From the NCBI GenBank assembly GCA_041908585.1, contig JAYRFB010000201.1, positions 3,694-67,693 of the forward strand: 64,000 nt of DNA, read 5' to 3'. The position numbers and the translations under genes are program-made. Shown here piece after piece: positions 5,739 through 12,518 of the stretch (position 1 is its first letter; every line of letters starts with the position of its first letter). This stretch comes from Candidatus Krumholzibacteriia bacterium. Lineage in GTDB: Bacteria; Krumholzibacteriota; Krumholzibacteriia; LZORAL124-64-63. The notes beneath the pieces were generated by a model. The model saw nothing but the letters and a program-made list of their open reading frames with translations, ran no database searches and was not told the origin of the DNA.

Positions 5739-6194
5739 TCAGTCCTCGCCCGCGGGCCGCCCCCGCGCGCGCTTGACCGCCCCTCGCCGCTTCTTGCTGT
5801 CCAGCCGCTTGACGCGCGAGGCGGCCGTGGGCCGCGTCGGCCGGCGCGGGCGCGGCGGCACCAGCGCGCGCCGCACCAGCTCGGCCAGGCGCGCGGCCAC
5901 CTCCTCGCGGTTGCGGCGCTGGCTGCGGTGCGTGGCGCAGGCCAGCAGCAGGTCGCCGCCCTCGGTCAGGCGCGAGGCCAGCGCCGCCAGCACGCGCTGG
6001 CGCTGCACCTCGCCCAGCGCGGTGGAGCCGGCCACGTTCCAGCGCAGCTGCACCCGCGTGTCGGCCGTGTTGACGTGCTGCCCGCCGGGCCCCGAGGCGC
6101 GGCTGGCGGTGAACTCCAGCTCGGCCGCGGGAATGGTCACCCGCGCGTTGATCACCAGGTCTTCCGCCATCGCCCTGCGCTCCCGCCTCTTCAT
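5739..6194 (-). CDS. arfB: Alternative ribosome-rescue factor ArfB (peptidyl-tRNA hydrolase, YaeJ family).
   Basis: GGQ motif in RASGPGGQHVNT, a basic C-terminal tail (KRLDSKKRRGAVKRARGR) and about 140 aa. An alternative start lies at MAEDLV (6170). Confidence 0.85.
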   Translation of the reverse strand: MKRRERRAMAEDLVINARVTIPAAELEFTASRASGPGGQHVNTADTRVQLRWNVAGSTALGEVQRQRVLAALASRLTEGGDLLLACATHRSQRRNREEVAARLAELVRRALVPPRPRRPTRPTAASRVKRLDSKKRRGAVKRARGRPAGED

Positions 6195-6337: not shown

Positions 6338-6685
6338 ATGATCATCCGCAAGCTCGCCGACGTCCCCACGACCCCCGTGGCGATGGACGGCGTCCGCGAC
6401 ATCACCAAGCAGCTGGTGGTCGGCAGCGCCGATGGCGCCCCGAACTTCTCGTTCCGTGTGTTCACGGTGGCGCCGGGTGGCCATTCGCCCCACCACAGCC
6501 ACGATGTCGAGCACGTGAATTACGTCATCAGCGGACAGGGTGCCCTGGTCGATGGCGAAGGGCGGCTCAACCCCTTGGCGCCCGGCGACTTCGCCTTCGT
6601 GGCGCCGGGCGACATCCACCAGTTCCGGAATACCGGCAGCGAGCCGTTCGTGTTCATCTGCGCCGTGCCGAAGGCCTACGAATAG
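6338..6685 (+). CDS. Cupin-domain protein.
   Basis: 115 aa with the two-motif cupin signature (G..HSHDVEHVNYVISG ... PGDIHQFRN). Confidence 0.7.
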   Translation: MIIRKLADVPTTPVAMDGVRDITKQLVVGSADGAPNFSFRVFTVAPGGHSPHHSHDVEHVNYVISGQGALVDGEGRLNPLAPGDFAFVAPGDIHQFRNTGSEPFVFICAVPKAYE

Positions 6686-6824
6686 AGGCACGACCGGCCG
6701 GGCATGTTATGATTGTAACAAGCGCCGGGTGGTCCGGCTGCGGAAATTCCCCGATGCGGGTGCCCACGGAATGAAGCTGACTGGACTTCTTGGGTGGAAA
6801 CGCGGCCCGGACCAGGAAGTGGTC

Positions 6825-7571
6825 ATGGAGTCGTCGCGCGGCCTCCTCGAGGCCACGGCGGACGACCTGGAGCTGGAGCAGCGCTGGCTGCAGCTGGCCA
6901 GGGTCGACACGGACCAGTTCCGACTCTTCTTCGACAAATACCATGACCATGTCTACCGCTACCTCGCGGCCTGCGTCGGGGACGCCGAGGTGGCACAGGA
7001 CCTGACGCAGGAGACGTTCCTGTACGCGCTGGATCACCTCGGGCGCTTCAACCTCCAGCGTGGATCGTTCGGGGTCTGGCTGTTCCACATCGCGAGGCGG
7101 CGGGTGCTGCCGCGGCACTACCGGAGGCACCGGAAGGCCTCCGAGGCCGAGTTCCTGCGTCGGCACCAGCCCGGGTCGCTCAGTCCGGACCCGATCGCGC
7201 AGCAGGACCGCGCGGCGCTGCTGGCGCGGTTGCGGCTGGCGATCCAGGAGCTGTCGCCGCAGCGGCGGGATGCCTACGTGCTGCACGTGCAGTTGGAGTA
7301 CTCGATCGCCGACACGGCGCTGCTGATGGGCGTCAAGCCGCAGACGGTCAAGTCGCTGCTGAAGCGGGGCCGTCCGCAGCTGGCGGAGGCGCTGCACCGG
7401 GAGCGGGCGCTGACGCCCGGGGAAAGGCGGATGGTCGACGCCATCGTGGCCGAGGAACGCGGGCTGTCCGCCGCGCCCTTGGCAGCGGTGCACGGGATGG
7501 GGACGCCGGAACGGGACGATCGCCACGGAGCCGGGAAGACTCGCCGGAACGGGGACGACGATGACGATTGA
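6825..7571 (+). CDS. ECF-type RNA polymerase sigma-70 factor.
   Basis: Region 2 (FDKYHDHVYRYL...ETFLYAL) and region 4 (DAYVLHVQLEYSIADTALLMGVKPQTVKSLLKRGR) are present. An alternative upstream start is the ATG at 6771. Confidence 0.8.
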   Translation: MESSRGLLEATADDLELEQRWLQLARVDTDQFRLFFDKYHDHVYRYLAACVGDAEVAQDLTQETFLYALDHLGRFNLQRGSFGVWLFHIARRRVLPRHYRRHRKASEAEFLRRHQPGSLSPDPIAQQDRAALLARLRLAIQELSPQRRDAYVLHVQLEYSIADTALLMGVKPQTVKSLLKRGRPQLAEALHRERALTPGERRMVDAIVAEERGLSAAPLAAVHGMGTPERDDRHGAGKTRRNGDDDDD

Positions 7572-8325
7572 CCGCGACAGCCACGACGGCCGGATAGGGC
7601 TCGACAGCCTGAACCGGCTTGTGCGCGAAGCCGCCGGTCCGCTGCCGGACCCGACGGCGGCGCGGCGCGCGATACGCGCCTCGCTCGCGGTGCCGCTCGC
7701 GCGGCGGGAGCGCCGCCTTGCGCGGCAACGCATCGGCGCCACAGTGGCCCTGTCGGTGCTGATGGTGGTCGGACTGGCAGTGCCATTGGGCGGGGACGAC
7801 TTCGAAGTTCAGGTCTCGAACTACATGAAGAACGGGCGCCAGATCACGCTCTACAAGCAGGGACTCCGGGGAACGGAGGTCGTGGCCACGCAGCGCCGCG
7901 GGGAACCAGATCTGACCCGCGAAGTGGCCGAGGAACTCCTGATGGCGAAGGACACCACTCCGGCGATCCCCGTCAGCCTGCACGGTTTTCGGTTGGGCAA
8001 ACTCGAGCGAATCACCCTCGCCAGCGACTATCGACTCTCCGATGGACGGATTTTCACTTCGAGCAAGACGTTGCCGGACAGGGATGCGTCGACCGCTGGA
8101 GCCCTGCGGGAATGGATGCGCGACGATCGCCTGTCCCCCGGCGAAGTCATGGTGCAGGTCGTGGAGTCAGCATTGGCACGCGCCCCGGACTTCACCACTC
8201 CCATGTTCGAAGGCGGCCTTCTGTGGATCGTCGACGGCTGGCGCGTGAAGCTCCCGGGACGCGAGCCGATCATCTACCTCGAAGGTCGACGCGCCGACGG
8301 CGTAAGGCCACTGGCCGACGACTGA
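7561..8325 (+). CDS. Putative single-pass anti-sigma factor cognate to the upstream ECF sigma.
   Basis: It overlaps the sigma gene by 11 nt. It has a cytoplasmic N-terminus, one TM helix (IGATVALSVLMVVGLAVPL) and a C-terminal extracytoplasmic domain. This is a context-based call. Confidence 0.5.
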   Translation: MTIDRDSHDGRIGLDSLNRLVREAAGPLPDPTAARRAIRASLAVPLARRERRLARQRIGATVALSVLMVVGLAVPLGGDDFEVQVSNYMKNGRQITLYKQGLRGTEVVATQRRGEPDLTREVAEELLMAKDTTPAIPVSLHGFRLGKLERITLASDYRLSDGRIFTSSKTLPDRDASTAGALREWMRDDRLSPGEVMVQVVESALARAPDFTTPMFEGGLLWIVDGWRVKLPGREPIIYLEGRRADGVRPLADD

Positions 8326-8362
8326 GCGGCTCAGGCCTGCCGCCGGCCGTGCGCCCGACCGG

Positions 8363-8551
8363 TCAGCCGTTGAGAACCCAGTGCACACCGGTCTGGGTCA
8401 GCGACCGGTTTCCGGCCGGCGCCTCGTCGCCGTCGGCGGGAGCCGGCTCCACGCACGTGCATTCGCAATCGGCCGCCGGCGCCGGCGTGCCGGGTTCGGG
8501 CTCCTTGCCAAGTTCCTGATCCCGGTTCGTGCTCTCGAGCTCCTTGAACAT
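8363..8551 (-). CDS. Candidate RiPP precursor peptide (62 aa), encoded immediately downstream of the radical SAM/SPASM enzyme.
   Basis: The ATG at 8551 lies 35 nt after the rSAM stop and is preceded by GGAAAGGA-cagcg. The sequence is MFKELESTNRDQELGKEPEPGTPAPAADCECTCVEPAPADGDEAPAGNRSLTQTGVHWVLNG. It is very acidic (12 D/E), has three Cys in a CECTC cluster, an aromatic HW near the C-terminus and GC-rich third codon positions. It could still be an ORF artefact of high GC. Confidence 0.4.
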   Translation of the reverse strand: MFKELESTNRDQELGKEPEPGTPAPAADCECTCVEPAPADGDEAPAGNRSLTQTGVHWVLNG

Positions 8552-8586
8552 CGCTGTCCTTTCCGGCGCCGCGACGGGCGCGCTTC

Positions 8587-10098
8587 TCAACCGACGGTGG
8601 TCGTCTCCAGCCAGGCCCTCGTGCGTTCCGGCAGCCGCAACGCGCGCACCACCAGGGCCAGGTTCCGCTCCTCGGCGCGCCGCAGGCGCGCGCACTCCTC
8701 CGCCAGACCCGCGGCTCCGCCTGCACTGGCGGCCGCGGCCTGCGTCGCGAAGCAGGCGCCGCAGCGCCGAAGCGCCCAGCAGTCGGCGCAACCCGCTGAC
8801 ACGGCCTGATGGAAACCCTGCTGCAGACGACGCACGCGCCGCGGCTCGAGGCCCGTCGCGAGATCGCCGATCGGCATCGCGTTGCCGGTCCGCTCGCACG
8901 GGTGCAGGGAACCGTCCGGCATCACATGGAGCTTGCGCCGCCCCGGTCGGCAGTTGCCGCCGGGCGTCCACGTCGGGCCCGGGCTCCGGCGCGAGCGGTG
9001 ATGCCAGCGGATCAGCACGGGCTCGCAGAGGGCGCGCGCCACGGGCCCTGCGGCGGCGTGGTTCCCGGCGCTCAGCGCCGCCAGGAAGCGCCGCTCCTGC
9101 CGCGCGAACGGCTCGGCCGGCGCTCCTGCCTGCCCGGCGTCGGCGGCCCAATCCAGCCCGCGCAGGTCGGCCAACCCCACCCGCAATTGCGGCGCACCGG
9201 CCAGGCCGCGCCGCCGGTACGGCGGGAAGGCCGCGAAATATTCGGCCACCGCGTCCAGGTCGACCGGCGGCGCCAGCGTGACGTTGAAGACGAGCCGCGT
9301 GGCGGCCGCCGGGTCGCGCGCCAGCAGGCGGTCCAGCCCGGCCTCGATCGCGGCGTGCGTCGGTCGTCCGGCGGCGTCCACGCGATGCCGGTCGTGCGCG
9401 GCGGCGGGTCCGTCCAGGCTCACCTGCAGGTGCATGCGCTCGGTCGCGACCAGGTCGATGACGCGCTCGTCCAGCAGCACGCCGTTCGTGTCGACGGCGA
9501 ACCGGACGCGCCCGCCCGCCGGATGCGCGCGGACGGCGGCCACCACGGCCGCGACCAGGTCCGGCTCGAGCAGCGCCTCGCCGCCGTAGAAGGAGATCAC
9601 GGGCGACCGCGCGCCGTCGGCGCGGTCGAGGAACCAGCGCGCGGCCCGGACGGCCGTCGCCTCCGGCATCGCCGATGAACCATGCGGCCGGACCCAGTCC
9701 AGGTGGCCGCCGTGCGCGCAGTAGCGGCAGCGCAGGTTGCAGCGCTCGGTCACCGTCAGCACCAGATGCTGCAGGTCGCGGTCGCAGTGGCCGGCTCGCG
9801 ACCACCGCAAAGGCGGGGGCACCAGGCGCGGTCGGCCCGCCAGGAAGAGCCCGCGCTCGCGCCGCCCGCGCTCGATCGCCGCGAAGGCGGCGCGGACGGT
9901 CGCGGCGCCGAACCGCGGTGCCAGGTCGGCCAGCAGCGCACGGCGCGGCTCCAGGCCATAGCGAGGCAACACGGCGGCCAGCGGCGGCTCGACCTCGAGC
10001 AGGCTGTTGGCGTGGACGTCGTAGAAGCAGTCGCGGCCATCGACGTTCAGCACGTGGCCGAACGGCGCGCGACGTTTCCCGGCGTTGCCTGTGGACAT
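8587..10098 (-). CDS. Radical SAM enzyme with a C-terminal SPASM-type auxiliary cluster domain. It is a putative peptide-modifying maturase.
   Basis: A CNLRCRYC (CxxxCxxC) motif lies about 120 aa from the N-terminus. The C-terminal cluster is CADCWALRRCGAC, with an additional ...HPCE... Cys. The roughly 115-aa N-terminal extension preceding the rSAM core could be an RRE-like domain. Confidence 0.85.
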   Translation of the reverse strand: MSTGNAGKRRAPFGHVLNVDGRDCFYDVHANSLLEVEPPLAAVLPRYGLEPRRALLADLAPRFGAATVRAAFAAIERGRRERGLFLAGRPRLVPPPLRWSRAGHCDRDLQHLVLTVTERCNLRCRYCAHGGHLDWVRPHGSSAMPEATAVRAARWFLDRADGARSPVISFYGGEALLEPDLVAAVVAAVRAHPAGGRVRFAVDTNGVLLDERVIDLVATERMHLQVSLDGPAAAHDRHRVDAAGRPTHAAIEAGLDRLLARDPAAATRLVFNVTLAPPVDLDAVAEYFAAFPPYRRRGLAGAPQLRVGLADLRGLDWAADAGQAGAPAEPFARQERRFLAALSAGNHAAAGPVARALCEPVLIRWHHRSRRSPGPTWTPGGNCRPGRRKLHVMPDGSLHPCERTGNAMPIGDLATGLEPRRVRRLQQGFHQAVSAGCADCWALRRCGACFATQAAAASAGGAAGLAEECARLRRAEERNLALVVRALRLPERTRAWLETTTVG

Positions 10099-10353
10099 GG
10101 CCCGCCTCCGGGCACCCGGGCCCGCGGCCCGACAGGGACCGGTCCGGTGTTGCCGGTGCCATCATGTCCCGGGGCCGTTCCGTCCGGCGGAACGGCGAGC
10201 ACGAATGGCCCCGGCGGGCCGCTGCGCCGCTGGGAACACTGGCCACCGAGCCGCTGTTTTCGTTCCTTCAGGGGTGGCCCTGGCTTCGGCCGGCGGGCCT
10301 CGCAGCGGACGCGCATCTTGAGAAATCCCACCGGACTGCGGACAGCCCTGGAA

Positions 10354-10369
10354 CCGGCACGCGCCTTGC
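10354..10369 (+). promoter_or_regulatory. Candidate sigma-54 (-24/-12) promoter upstream of prkA.
   Basis: cGGCACG-cgcc-TTGCg at 10354..10369 matches the TGGCACG-N4-TTGCW consensus with correct GG/GC spacing. It lies about 90 nt upstream of the prkA ATG. E. coli yeaGH is known to be NtrC/sigma-54 dependent. Confidence 0.4.
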
Positions 10370-10457
10370 GGGCACGCGGTTCGCGGGATGAGTCCACCAA
10401 CCTCCCGGCCGGACGCGCATGACGCCCCGGCCCGGCGGATCCTGACGGGGGTCGACC

Positions 10458-12518
10458 ATGATCGAGAACCGGAAGAACACGCTGCACAACCACCTGCTGG
10501 CCCTCAAGGGCGGCGAGAGGCGGTTCGAGAACGCCTTCGAGGCGATCAGCCGCATGATCCTCGACGCGCCCATCGAGAAGGTGGTGGTCAACGGCAAGAC
10601 GACCTACGACTTCAAGATCTTCCGGGACGGGAAGAAACACATCGTCGGGATGTATGACGAAATCAACAGTTTCGTCTCATACGTCAAGGATGCGGCCGAG
10701 GGCGGGTCATCGCAGGAGATGGCCTATGTCCTGGTCGGCGAGCCCGGCAACGGCAAGACCTTCTTCGTGGAGTACGTCAGCCGCCTGTACCGGGAGTTCC
10801 TGGCCCAGGAAGCCAACCGCCGCTACAGCTTCCGCTTCACCGGCCTGGACAGAATCGGCACATACGGCCGGATTGCGGCCATCGAGAGCCAGACCTACGA
10901 GGACCCCGCGGTGCTCGCGATGAACCTCCTGGAGACCCCCGGGGAGAGCCGCGACTACCTGGCCCGCAAGGTGGGCTTCAGCGACGAGCAGCTGGACCGG
11001 ATGTACGCCAACTACCGCCCCCTGGGCGCCTGCAGCGGCTACATCTGGAGCGACCTGCGCCGCCTGCACGACGGCAGCCTGGTCGAGATGCTCAAGCACG
11101 TCGAGACCTTCGCGGTGCCGCTGACCGAGAGCCTGGGCACCGTCACCGGCAAGTACCCGGCAAAGGACAAGATCACCAGCAGCGCGGTGGACCTGCTGGG
11201 CGAGGAGTCCATCCAGCGGCTGCTGCACATCACCGACACGAACAACCCCTACCGCTTCGACCTGCGCCGCGGCGCACTGGCGCGCGTGGCCGGCGGAGGC
11301 ATCCACTTCTCGGACGAGATGTTCAAGAACAAGAAGGACCTGGTGCAGGTCTATCTGGGCGTCATCCAGAACCGCACCATCGAGATGGACGGCTTCAGGT
11401 GGCCGATCGACACGCTGATCATCGCCACCAGCAACAACAGCGAGTTCAACCGCTTCCTGGCCGAGAAGGAGGAGGCGCCGATCATCGACCGCTGCCGCGT
11501 GTGCTACGTGTCGCACAACACAAACTACCGGCTGCAGGGCCAGCTGACCCAGTACGCCATCGGCGGCGAGACCAAGACGACACTGAACCGCGAGGTGCTC
11601 CACCAGGACCCGAACCTGAACTACGCCGCCTCGGTGGCCGCCATCCTGACGCGCCTGCCGCGCAGCGAGAAGCTGACGCCCATCGAGACGATGAAGCTGG
11701 CGGCCGGCGAGGTGGCCGGCGAGAAGAGCATCAAGGCCCTGGCCGAGGTCATCGACACGCTGAGCCAGGACACCGACATCACGGCGCGCTTCGGCCAGAA
11801 GGGCCTGGGCCAGCGCAACCTGGGCCGCGCCATCCAGCTGATGGTGGAGAGCTCGGAGACGAACGAGGGCGAGTGCATGTTCGCCTACGACGTCTTCAAG
11901 GCGATCGAGCGCGTCATCCTGGACTACGTGCACGACAACAACGACCGCGCGAAGTACCTGGAGGACCTGAAGACCGCCCGCGGCCTGTACCGCGAGCGCA
12001 TCATGACCGAGATGTTCAACGCCTACATGGACGAGCCCCAGGCCATCCGGAAGGACGTGCTGAACTACGTCAACATGATCATCGGCATCGACGCCGAGCA
12101 CCTGGGCCCGGACAAGATGTGGAAGTACAAGGACCCGCAGACGGGCGAGCTGCGCGCGCTGAAGGTGGACGAGCGCTTCATCAAGAGCATCGAGGAGCGC
12201 CTGTCGCTGAAGACCGACGAGCAGCGCGAGACGTTCCGCACCTCGATCCGCAAGATCTACGGGCAGAAGATCTCGCTGGACCCGAACTACGACTTCATGG
12301 ACAACCTCGAGCTGGTCAAGGCCGTGACCGACGTTCGGCTCAAGAGCGACATCGCCGGGGCGGGCAGCCTGATCGGCGCCCTGGCCAACCGGACCAACGA
12401 GGAGAACCAGAAGCTCTACGACCGCATGATCGACACCATGCTCGGCAAGCTGGGCTACTGCCGCACCTGTGCGCAGAAGACGATCGAGTACTTCTGCACG
12501 CAGGAGGACGAGAACTAG
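10458..12518 (+). CDS. prkA: PrkA-family serine protein kinase (AAA+ N-terminal domain plus PrkA C-terminal domain).
   Basis: 686 aa with the Walker A LVGEPGNGKTFF. Full-length resemblance to PrkA/YeaG, and the gene is followed by yeaH-like and spoVR. Confidence 0.95.
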   Translation: MIENRKNTLHNHLLALKGGERRFENAFEAISRMILDAPIEKVVVNGKTTYDFKIFRDGKKHIVGMYDEINSFVSYVKDAAEGGSSQEMAYVLVGEPGNGKTFFVEYVSRLYREFLAQEANRRYSFRFTGLDRIGTYGRIAAIESQTYEDPAVLAMNLLETPGESRDYLARKVGFSDEQLDRMYANYRPLGACSGYIWSDLRRLHDGSLVEMLKHVETFAVPLTESLGTVTGKYPAKDKITSSAVDLLGEESIQRLLHITDTNNPYRFDLRRGALARVAGGGIHFSDEMFKNKKDLVQVYLGVIQNRTIEMDGFRWPIDTLIIATSNNSEFNRFLAEKEEAPIIDRCRVCYVSHNTNYRLQGQLTQYAIGGETKTTLNREVLHQDPNLNYAASVAAILTRLPRSEKLTPIETMKLAAGEVAGEKSIKALAEVIDTLSQDTDITARFGQKGLGQRNLGRAIQLMVESSETNEGECMFAYDVFKAIERVILDYVHDNNDRAKYLEDLKTARGLYRERIMTEMFNAYMDEPQAIRKDVLNYVNMIIGIDAEHLGPDKMWKYKDPQTGELRALKVDERFIKSIEERLSLKTDEQRETFRTSIRKIYGQKISLDPNYDFMDNLELVKAVTDVRLKSDIAGAGSLIGALANRTNEENQKLYDRMIDTMLGKLGYCRTCAQKTIEYFCTQEDEN

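Follow-up and report, generated by a model that had tools for sequence, protein, structure and literature searches.

A stretch of 64,000 nucleotides of contig JAYRFB010000201.1 from a Candidatus Krumholzibacteriia bacterium was analysed (below, the window means the whole of this stretch). It contains four neighbouring genes that would make up one module with two halves. The first half consists of a radical S-adenosylmethionine (SAM) enzyme with a SPASM domain, the candidate maturase, and of a small peptide with a CxCxC motif. The second half consists of an extracytoplasmic function (ECF) sigma factor and of a single-pass membrane protein resembling an anti-sigma factor. The enzyme and the peptide had been noted by an earlier, sequence-only reading of this DNA as a candidate system for a peptide that is made by ribosomes and modified after translation (RiPP). 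Homologous loci are denoted L001, L002 etc. The features of the four genes in the window are as follows.

8363..8551, minus strand: precursor-like peptide gene, 62 amino acids (read as an open reading frame, ORF; a called gene in public assemblies)
8453..8467, minus strand: CxCxC motif (C29, C31, C33) of the window peptide (alignment of 33 peptides)
8557-8564, minus strand: Shine-Dalgarno sequence GGAAAGGA of the peptide gene (read directly, 5 nucleotides before the ATG)
8587..10098, minus strand: radical SAM/SPASM peptide maturase, 503 amino acids (ORF; Pfam Radical_SAM)
9853..10059, minus strand: N-terminal domain resembling the leader-binding RiPP recognition element (RRE), residues about 14-82 (AlphaFold topology and profile alignment with CteB)
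9718..9741, minus strand: CX3CX2C radical SAM cluster motif (C120, C124, C127), invariant in 34 members
8692..8952, minus strand: SPASM domain with seven invariant cysteines (C383, C401, C437, C440, C446, C449, C469)
6771..7571, plus strand: ECF sigma factor gene (start 6771, MKLTG, chosen by conservation; alternative start 6825)
7561..8325, plus strand: single-pass membrane protein, anti-sigma-like, 254 amino acids (its start overlaps the sigma stop)

The candidate maturase and its peptide

The stop codon of the enzyme gene ends at 8587 and the peptide ATG is at 8551, leaving a gap of 35 nucleotides. Residues 120-127 of the enzyme read CNLRCRYC, and residues 437-449 read CADCWALRRCGAC. The peptide starts with M-F-K-E-L-E, continues with CECTC, ends with the tail HWVLNG, and is acidic (12 D+E versus 4 K+R). 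The sequence-only reading had described a 503-residue radical SAM protein with CNLRCRYC about 120 residues in and a C-terminal SPASM-like cluster, followed after 35 nucleotides by a Shine-Dalgarno sequence and an acidic 62-residue ORF with CECTC. This description was exact in position, and the peptide sequence that it quoted is identical.

By itself, an ORF of 62 codons is within chance, because DNA of 71% GC, as in the window, is full of spurious ORFs (dozens of them in the ORF list). However, this one is beyond chance, because it is conserved across loci and public contigs. Gene calls on 28 public contigs include the exact 62-residue peptide, and in independent assemblies its gene is called beside that of the enzyme. 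The GC content by codon position (0.70/0.54/0.83) is a coding pattern, as in the enzyme gene, and GGAGG-like sequences also precede the peptide ATG in L007-L009. Judging from these sequence features, the small ORF is a real gene. The peptide frame remains open upstream for 627 codons (8363-10246, minus strand) across the enzyme gene, which is in another frame; this read-through is an artefact of GC-rich DNA and could mislead gene callers.

The peptide was traced through 20 loci of the enzyme family; 41 peptides were anchored on CxCxC and 33 peptides were aligned. A small CxCxC ORF is present in 19 of the 20 loci, and the sole locus lacking it, L093, ends 264 nucleotides past the enzyme gene. 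Close relatives of the window peptide are 61-87% identical to it. The peptide ORF lies immediately downstream where the enzymes are 63-93% identical to the window enzyme, and likewise at 44-51%. At 34-41% identity the peptide gene is still there, 5' of the enzyme gene or beyond the sigma and anti-sigma genes. Thus the proposal that a short ORF with CxCxC accompanies the enzyme in related genomes holds down to the most distant of these enzymes. A profile of five peptides run against 1.84 billion representative proteins yielded 21 more peptides of 55-64 residues.

Family peptides have 55-68 residues, typically 56, and start with M-F/Y-K/R-x-L-E. In the alignment of 33, Met1 and the three cysteines are the sole invariant residues, L5 being nearly so. 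The CxCxC motif typically has 22 residues before it and, in 30 of the 41 anchored peptides, exactly 29 after it. Most of these peptides end with Y/H-W/Y/F-D-I-N-G directly at the stop codon, the aromatic positions of the tail varying between W, Y, F, A, L, V and T. The HW of the window peptide, which the sequence-only reading had proposed to look for in related genomes, is not conserved as such; the conserved motif is the aromatic-aromatic-D-I-N-G at the extreme C-terminus. Peptides of one sub-family (L011, L012/L090, L096) have five or six alternating cysteines, (Cx)5-6, as in CNCNCICSC and CPCVCSCTCSC, and a different tail without D-I-N-G. Their genes all lie 5' of the enzyme gene:

L011, 178-423: alternating-cysteine peptide gene
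L012, 5730-5963: alternating-cysteine peptide gene
L090, 6829-7014: alternating-cysteine peptide gene
L096, about 6430-6636: alternating-cysteine peptide gene

The L096 peptide gene has been missed by public annotation.

None of the 33 aligned peptides matches any NCBIfam precursor model, and no Pfam family is matched by any peptide either, in agreement with the earlier statement that the peptide differs from the familiar precursor classes. No GxGxG was found after the cysteines in the anchored and aligned peptides, and inspection of the window peptide and its relatives revealed no signal sequence. By its sequence, the family is a new precursor class, with a rigid geometry of 22 + 5 + 29 residues and with Met1 and three alternating cysteines invariant.

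The enzyme family comprises about 90 full-length homologues, every one of them from metagenomes or metagenome-assembled genomes (MAGs). The window enzyme matches the Pfam Radical_SAM model (PF04055) with 52 bits against a cut-off of 29.5. The Pfam SPASM model is sub-threshold (14.4 bits vs 21.5), and there is no Pfam PqqD match. In the alignment of 34 members the CX3CX2C motif and seven SPASM cysteines, the motif for two auxiliary clusters, form invariant columns, and the SPASM region contains no eighth invariant cysteine.

Both structure and profile comparisons point to CteB, the thioether synthase of SCIFF peptides. The AlphaFold model of the enzyme has a mean predicted local distance difference test (pLDDT) of 92.3. 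Its best solved match in Foldseek is CteB (5WGG/5WHY), with a full-length alignment of 519 columns (E = 5e-20), followed by ChlB, anSME, TigE and SuiB. CteB is also the best match of the enzyme family profile in the PDB (E = 4.6e-48). In this alignment enzyme residues 7-250 correspond to CteB 3-239, including the N-terminal leader-binding domain of CteB, and residues 378-479 to CteB 345-446, the SPASM region. In the AlphaFold model, residues 14-82 form strands 14-19, 22-27 and 32-36 and then helices 38-43, 52-63 and 65-82, a topology that fits the winged helix of an RRE with its three strands and three helices, and the CcpM and QhpD models also align from enzyme residue 15. The RRE assignment is thereby made through homology to the N-terminal domain of CteB, not through a direct RRE model. 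The sequence-only reading had suspected an RRE in what it called an unusually long N-terminal extension. The RRE-like character is supported by the CteB profile, Foldseek and AlphaFold; however, the extension is not unusual, because the alignment covers the N-terminal domain of CteB, and it is thus the normal RRE-type domain of CteB-type maturases.

Among curated families, the best NCBIfam scores of the window enzyme are those of CcpM (179.3 bits, cut-off 500), RumMC (143, cut-off 720), QhpD (122.9, cut-off 453), nif11 (119, cut-off 519), lachnocin (117, cut-off 550), PapB (113, cut-off 340) and the SCIFF maturase TIGR03974 (80.9, cut-off 425). The cyclophane families XyeB, YhhB and FxsB are weaker matches (60-87 bits, cut-offs 370-450), and MftC is not among the listed family matches of the window enzyme or the 34 members. 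The order of the nearest families is the same for all 34 members and none of these reaches a cut-off; the best member against CcpM (TIGR04068) has E = 4.5e-77 and is still under it. As far as sequence and model comparisons go, the enzyme is closest to CteB, yet outside every curated family.

Several known identities were rejected. Peptide-maturase families are on top of the matches, as the sequence-only reading had expected, and the anaerobic sulfatase maturase model (TIGR03942) scores only 64 bits vs 349; an RRE-like domain is present and no sulfatase was found in the neighbourhood. The QhpD identity is contradicted by its score and by the lack of Qhp genes in any locus table. A SCIFF identity fails on the score of the enzyme, far under the cut-off, and on the peptides, which match no NCBIfam precursor model. 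For a sactisynthase of the StsB/MftC type, MftC should be among the matches; in addition, the RRE is fused to the enzyme and GxGxG is missing after the cysteines. A triceptide or cyclophane maturase is disfavoured by the sub-cut-off scores and by the peptides, which have a single, non-invariant aromatic site that is missing in the (Cx)5-6 sub-family.

The sigma and anti-sigma-like genes

The sigma factor matches TIGR02937 (sigma70-ECF) with 79.2 bits vs 42.9 and has the Sigma70_r2 (PF04542) and r4_2 (PF08281) domains. The start region AATGAAGCTGA is kept in 7 relatives, and therefore the gene probably starts at 6771 and not at 6825 or 6540. About 60 nucleotides 5' of this start there is a conserved extended -10-like element, TGtTATGAT (6705-6713).

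The membrane protein gene and the peptide gene point at each other, with 37 nucleotides (8326-8362) between their 3' ends. The protein matches no Pfam or NCBIfam family, and thus no known anti-sigma domain. It has one transmembrane helix and a cytoplasmic part of about 55 residues. Its family can be aligned between loci and shares the motifs LG(S/G)D.F, behind the transmembrane helix, and W...PG.G.V.Y..G.P, near the C-terminus. In the AlphaFold model, which is of low confidence (pLDDT 60), residues 31-73 form a long helix and a beta-rich domain comes next. A fold search with this model gave TM-scores of about 0.2 (barrels resembling green fluorescent protein), which are meaningless and were not used.

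Profile searches found the membrane protein gene adjacent in 19 of the 20 family loci and the sigma gene in 18. In L011 the sigma gene is cut by the contig end; in L096 it is 6 kb away, the membrane protein gene still being present. Loci L010-L012 were the only usable ones among 80 obtained by a metagenome scan with the enzyme family alignment; the other 77 represent other maturase families, the back-translated scan patterns being generic radical SAM motifs. The four genes occur in four orders:

Order A (window, L001-L010): enzyme, peptide, convergent anti-sigma and sigma genes
Order B (L011, L012, L090, L096; sigma not adjacent in L096): peptide, enzyme, convergent anti-sigma and sigma genes
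Order C (L091, L092): enzyme, sigma and anti-sigma genes on one strand, convergent peptide gene
Order D (L094, L095): sigma and anti-sigma genes, convergent peptide gene, divergent enzyme gene

In all four orders the peptide or enzyme gene meets the anti-sigma gene tail to tail, with anything from a 41-nucleotide gap to an 11-nucleotide overlap. No intrinsic terminator is predicted at this junction in the window, and convergent read-through or antisense coupling between the peptide and anti-sigma genes is possible. By gene neighbourhood, the sigma and anti-sigma-like genes are part of a conserved module with the enzyme and peptide genes, the linkage being near-obligate. The lineages carrying it are uncultured only (MAGs labelled Gemmatimonadales, Krumholzibacteriota and others).

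One further feature lies upstream of the enzyme gene:

10175-10195, unstranded: perfect palindrome CCGTTCCG-N5-CGGAACGG, 77 nucleotides 5' of the enzyme start codon

No second exact copy occurs in the window, and in 7 relatives both arms are unchanged, the surroundings being variable. In L002 and L004, where the neighbouring gene prkA lies 2.4-3 kb away, the palindrome has stayed beside the enzyme gene. It may serve the enzyme-peptide operon as a promoter element or as an operator for a putative regulator. A structured RNA is not supported, because the 5' region of the enzyme gene is no more stable than shuffled sequences (z = -0.96), and there is no riboswitch 5' of the gene, as neither the operon region nor the window as a whole gave a relevant Rfam match. 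A scan of window positions 6500-10600 with consensus models found neither sigma-70-type promoters nor intrinsic terminators. This fits co-transcription of the enzyme and peptide genes and is otherwise uninformative in DNA of 71% GC. In L008 and L009 (about 5800-6000), visual inspection 5' of the enzyme gene showed an extended -10 element TGnTA(C/T)AAT followed by a GC-rich hairpin with a T-run, GGAAGAGG...CCTCTTCC-TTTTTTT, that resembles a terminator or attenuator of a 5' leader.

A promoter shared by the sigma gene and the enzyme or peptide gene was sought in nine loci; it is convincing in L095 only, marginal in L092 and not seen in the window. In L095, a near-identical element of 39 nucleotides (TTTTTTTGTATCCAAAT..GG.GCTCACCG.TT.TCCCC) precedes both the sigma and the enzyme gene, with an alignment score of 53 against a maximum of 24 for shuffled sequences. 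An autoregulated ECF promoter together with one of its targets would be expected to give such a pattern. On one strand in L091 and L092, the enzyme gene is directly upstream of the sigma and anti-sigma genes. Stand-alone peptide genes have sigma-70-like hexamers: TTGACG-17-TAGAAT in L094 and TGGACG-17-TATAAT in L095 and, by eye, TTGACC-18-TATAAA in L091 and TTGACA-18-TATGAA in L092. These few loci suggest that the precursor is expressed separately and that the maturase is linked to the sigma factor.

Proposed cross-linking, cellular role and alternatives

We think it reasonably probable that the locus encodes a thioether-forming, RiPP-like system, a CteB-type maturase with its precursor, which is coupled to an ECF switch and acts inside the cell. 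The N-terminal domain of the enzyme would bind the peptide, the start M-F/Y-K/R-x-L-E being the likely handle, and the radical SAM cluster would cleave SAM to generate the 5'-deoxyadenosyl radical. The thiols of C29, C31 and C33 would then be joined to acceptor carbons, giving up to three intramolecular thioether rings of the sactipeptide or ranthipeptide type. The acceptors are probably located in the length-locked tail of 29 residues ending with Y/H-W/Y-D-I-N-G. A SPASM domain with seven cysteines and no eighth ligand fits an auxiliary cluster open to a substrate cysteine, as in CteB. Speculatively, the alternation in the Y-W-D-I-N-G tail could allow a register like that of StsA (see below). 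The sigma factor and the anti-sigma-like protein most likely control the maturase gene, some peptide genes being under a housekeeping-type promoter. The product would probably be an intracellular small cross-linked protein, as SCIFF is thought to be. An intracellular location is favoured because no exporter or protease is conserved in the locus tables examined and the peptide has no signal sequence.

The tie between the two halves of the module might be still closer. It is conceivable, although we consider it doubtful, that the modification state of the peptide sets the activity of the sigma factor, the RiPP serving as an intracellular partner-switching ligand. A constitutive CxCxC peptide would be cross-linked by an oxygen-, iron-sulfur- and SAM-dependent enzyme, and the cross-linked or the unmodified form would bind the short cytoplasmic part of the anti-sigma-like protein or the sigma factor itself. 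The conserved tail-to-tail and often overlapping peptide and anti-sigma genes could add antisense coupling.

Several observations weigh against the proposal of a sigma-linked thioether system. Firstly, the score of the enzyme fails to reach the cut-off of any thioether-forming family, and related SPASM enzymes form carbon-carbon or other links. Secondly, no acceptor residue is invariant in the 33 aligned peptides; an E following the motif and a D of the tail are no more than frequent. Thirdly, the anti-sigma role is assigned from position and topology only. Fourthly, the promoter evidence for sigma control comes from one locus, L095, and in the clade of the window the sigma gene has TGtTATGAT whereas the enzyme gene has a different element, the palindrome. 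Finally, all loci are derived from metagenomes or MAGs, and the linkage could partly reflect shared ancestry; however, shared ancestry alone is disfavoured because the gene orders are rearranged.

An alternative that we regard as unlikely is a secreted RiPP acting as a signal or an antimicrobial. A leader of 22 residues would be cut off, the core would be exported by means of an unlinked protease and transporter, and its sensing by the ectodomain of the anti-sigma protein would lead to autoinduction. Indeed, the anti-sigma-like protein is the most tightly linked partner, being kept even in L096, and its beta-rich extracytoplasmic domain (about 170 residues) is conserved together with the LG(S/G)D.F and C-terminal motifs. 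The module has an S9 peptidase as its neighbour in L008 and L009, and an S8 peptidase and an ATP-binding cassette (ABC) transporter in L094. However, neither exporter nor protease is conserved across the loci, and the peptide is without a signal sequence. Moreover, both extreme ends of the peptide and its length are conserved, which fits an uncleaved small protein better than a leader and a core.

Rather unlikely, too, is a different chemistry: a carbon-carbon (cyclophane or triceptide-like) or other link at the aromatic tail, an epimerisation or another modification, with the cysteines serving as ligands of a metal or cluster. Runs of Cys-x-Cys are metallothionein-like, the distance between CxCxC and the strongly conserved Y/H-W/Y/F-D-I-N-G tail is fixed, and YhhB, FxsB and XyeB are among the weaker matches of the enzyme. 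However, the aromatic residues vary and the (Cx)5-6 sub-family lacks them, whereas the cysteines never vary, and the strongest family and structure neighbours are cysteine-thioether enzymes.

A role in metal stress seems very improbable. In this case the sigma and anti-sigma pair would sense metal in the envelope and induce an acidic, cysteine-rich, metal-buffering peptide. The peptide is acidic with clustered cysteines, and RiPP operons for bufferins are under ECF sigma/anti-sigma control, SigF/NrsF (PMC11626156), just as methanobactin loci have the ECF sigma/anti-sigma pair MbnI/MbnR. On the other hand, bufferins have Sec signal peptides and are made by MNIO enzymes (PMC11626156), whereas here the peptide has no signal and the enzyme is a radical SAM protein. 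Cysteines converted to thioethers would lose their thiolate ligands, and the neighbourhoods examined have no conserved gene for metal transport or metal resistance.

That the small ORF is incidental and the enzyme acts on another protein, such as a sulfatase or the membrane protein, is hardly credible: short ORFs are common in GC-rich DNA, but this one is conserved in sequence, length and position through four gene orders, and the enzyme has an RRE-type domain and is distant from the anaerobic sulfatase maturase.

The closest known system is that of CteB and SCIFF, a ranthipeptide of Clostridia. The common features are an N-terminal RRE followed by a radical SAM barrel and a SPASM domain with seven cysteines, and a short cysteine-bearing peptide encoded beside the maturase. 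SCIFF, too, is not known to have a dedicated protease or exporter or an adjacent transporter or peptidase, and thus the lack of these genes, which the sequence-only reading had counted towards novelty, adds little. The SCIFF peptide has six cysteines in a C-terminal cluster, whereas the peptide considered here, of 56-62 residues, is acidic and unrelated, with three alternating cysteines in the middle. The lineages are also different (Gemmatimonadales, Krumholzibacteriota and related MAGs), and the linked ECF sigma/anti-sigma pair is a further distinction.

In StsA of Streptomyces sparsogenes, the core CxCxCx4GxGxG receives three hairpin Cys-Gly sactionines from StsB (PMC10288494). The CxCxC motif is the same, and the three cysteines of StsA are thioether donors with acceptors at every second residue. 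However, StsB is MftC-like and has a separate RRE protein, StsC, whereas here the RRE is fused; and the GxGxG of StsA stands four residues after the cysteines, whereas here there is none, the conserved partner motif being located about 23-29 residues downstream. The nearest curated families (CcpM, RumMC, QhpD, PapB, lachnocin and nif11 maturases) likewise act on cysteine-containing peptides or small proteins. However, the scores are well under their cut-offs, and their partner genes (QhpA/B/C, RumC and others) are not in these loci. The bufferin and methanobactin systems share with this one the association of a ribosomal peptide and a modifying enzyme with an ECF sigma factor and a membrane anti-sigma factor. 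They differ in the enzyme (MNIO/DUF692 versus radical SAM) and in the export of the peptides, and metal-handling genes are not conserved here.

A literature search, whose coverage leaves out most subscription journals, found no account of this enzyme-peptide family, nor of an ECF pair linked with a radical SAM peptide module; in its main text, the ECF reclassification paper is silent on radical SAM. Maturases of the radical SAM/SPASM type encoded next to their precursors are already known, many of them uncharacterised, and the enzyme-peptide pair alone would be one more. What is unusual is the near-obligate coupling to a sigma switch, which withstands rearrangement, together with the rigid geometry of the peptide, both confined to poorly studied uncultured lineages. 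With a peptide modified after translation as its output or input, the module would represent a new ECF signalling group, and the sigma linkage offers a handle on the cellular role of unexported, SCIFF-like cross-linked peptides.

Genes beyond the module

The sequence-only reading had placed the enzyme and the peptide between an ECF sigma/anti-sigma pair and a prkA operon. The flanks are indeed the ECF sigma and membrane protein genes on one side and prkA-DUF444-spoVR on the other. However, the sigma pair belongs to the module itself, and the prkA adjacency is clade-specific, with about half of the loci having it. It is seen only in the window, L001-L010 and L095, with a separation of 2.4-3 kb in L002 and L004, and prkA is not present at the L090-L092, L094 and L096 loci. 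For these reasons prkA was rejected as the defining functional partner. PrkA (window 10458-12518) is 87-97% identical across loci, as against 45-73% for the maturases there and about 20% for the anti-sigma proteins. Thus the module evolves far faster than its prkA neighbour.

A sigma-54-type motif, CGGCACGcgccTTGC (10355-10369, plus strand), lies 88 nucleotides 5' of the prkA start (10458) and is kept in the four closest relatives. Two matches to sigma-54-type motifs in the window do not exceed the chance expectation, so that the support for this one comes from its position and conservation.

Beyond the sigma gene, loci of the prkA-linked clade (window, L001-L009) contain a cupin gene (6338-6685 in the window) and an ArfB-like gene with an RF-1 domain (5739-6194). 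In L008 and L009 the S9 peptidase gene stands between these two genes and the sigma gene; in L094 the S8 peptidase and ABC transporter genes are beside the module. In the most divergent branch (L093, 4354-6903; L096, 4595-6121), Memo and second radical SAM genes resembling AmmeMemoRadiSam adjoin the module, and a conserved lysine-rich protein of about 105 residues is also encoded there.

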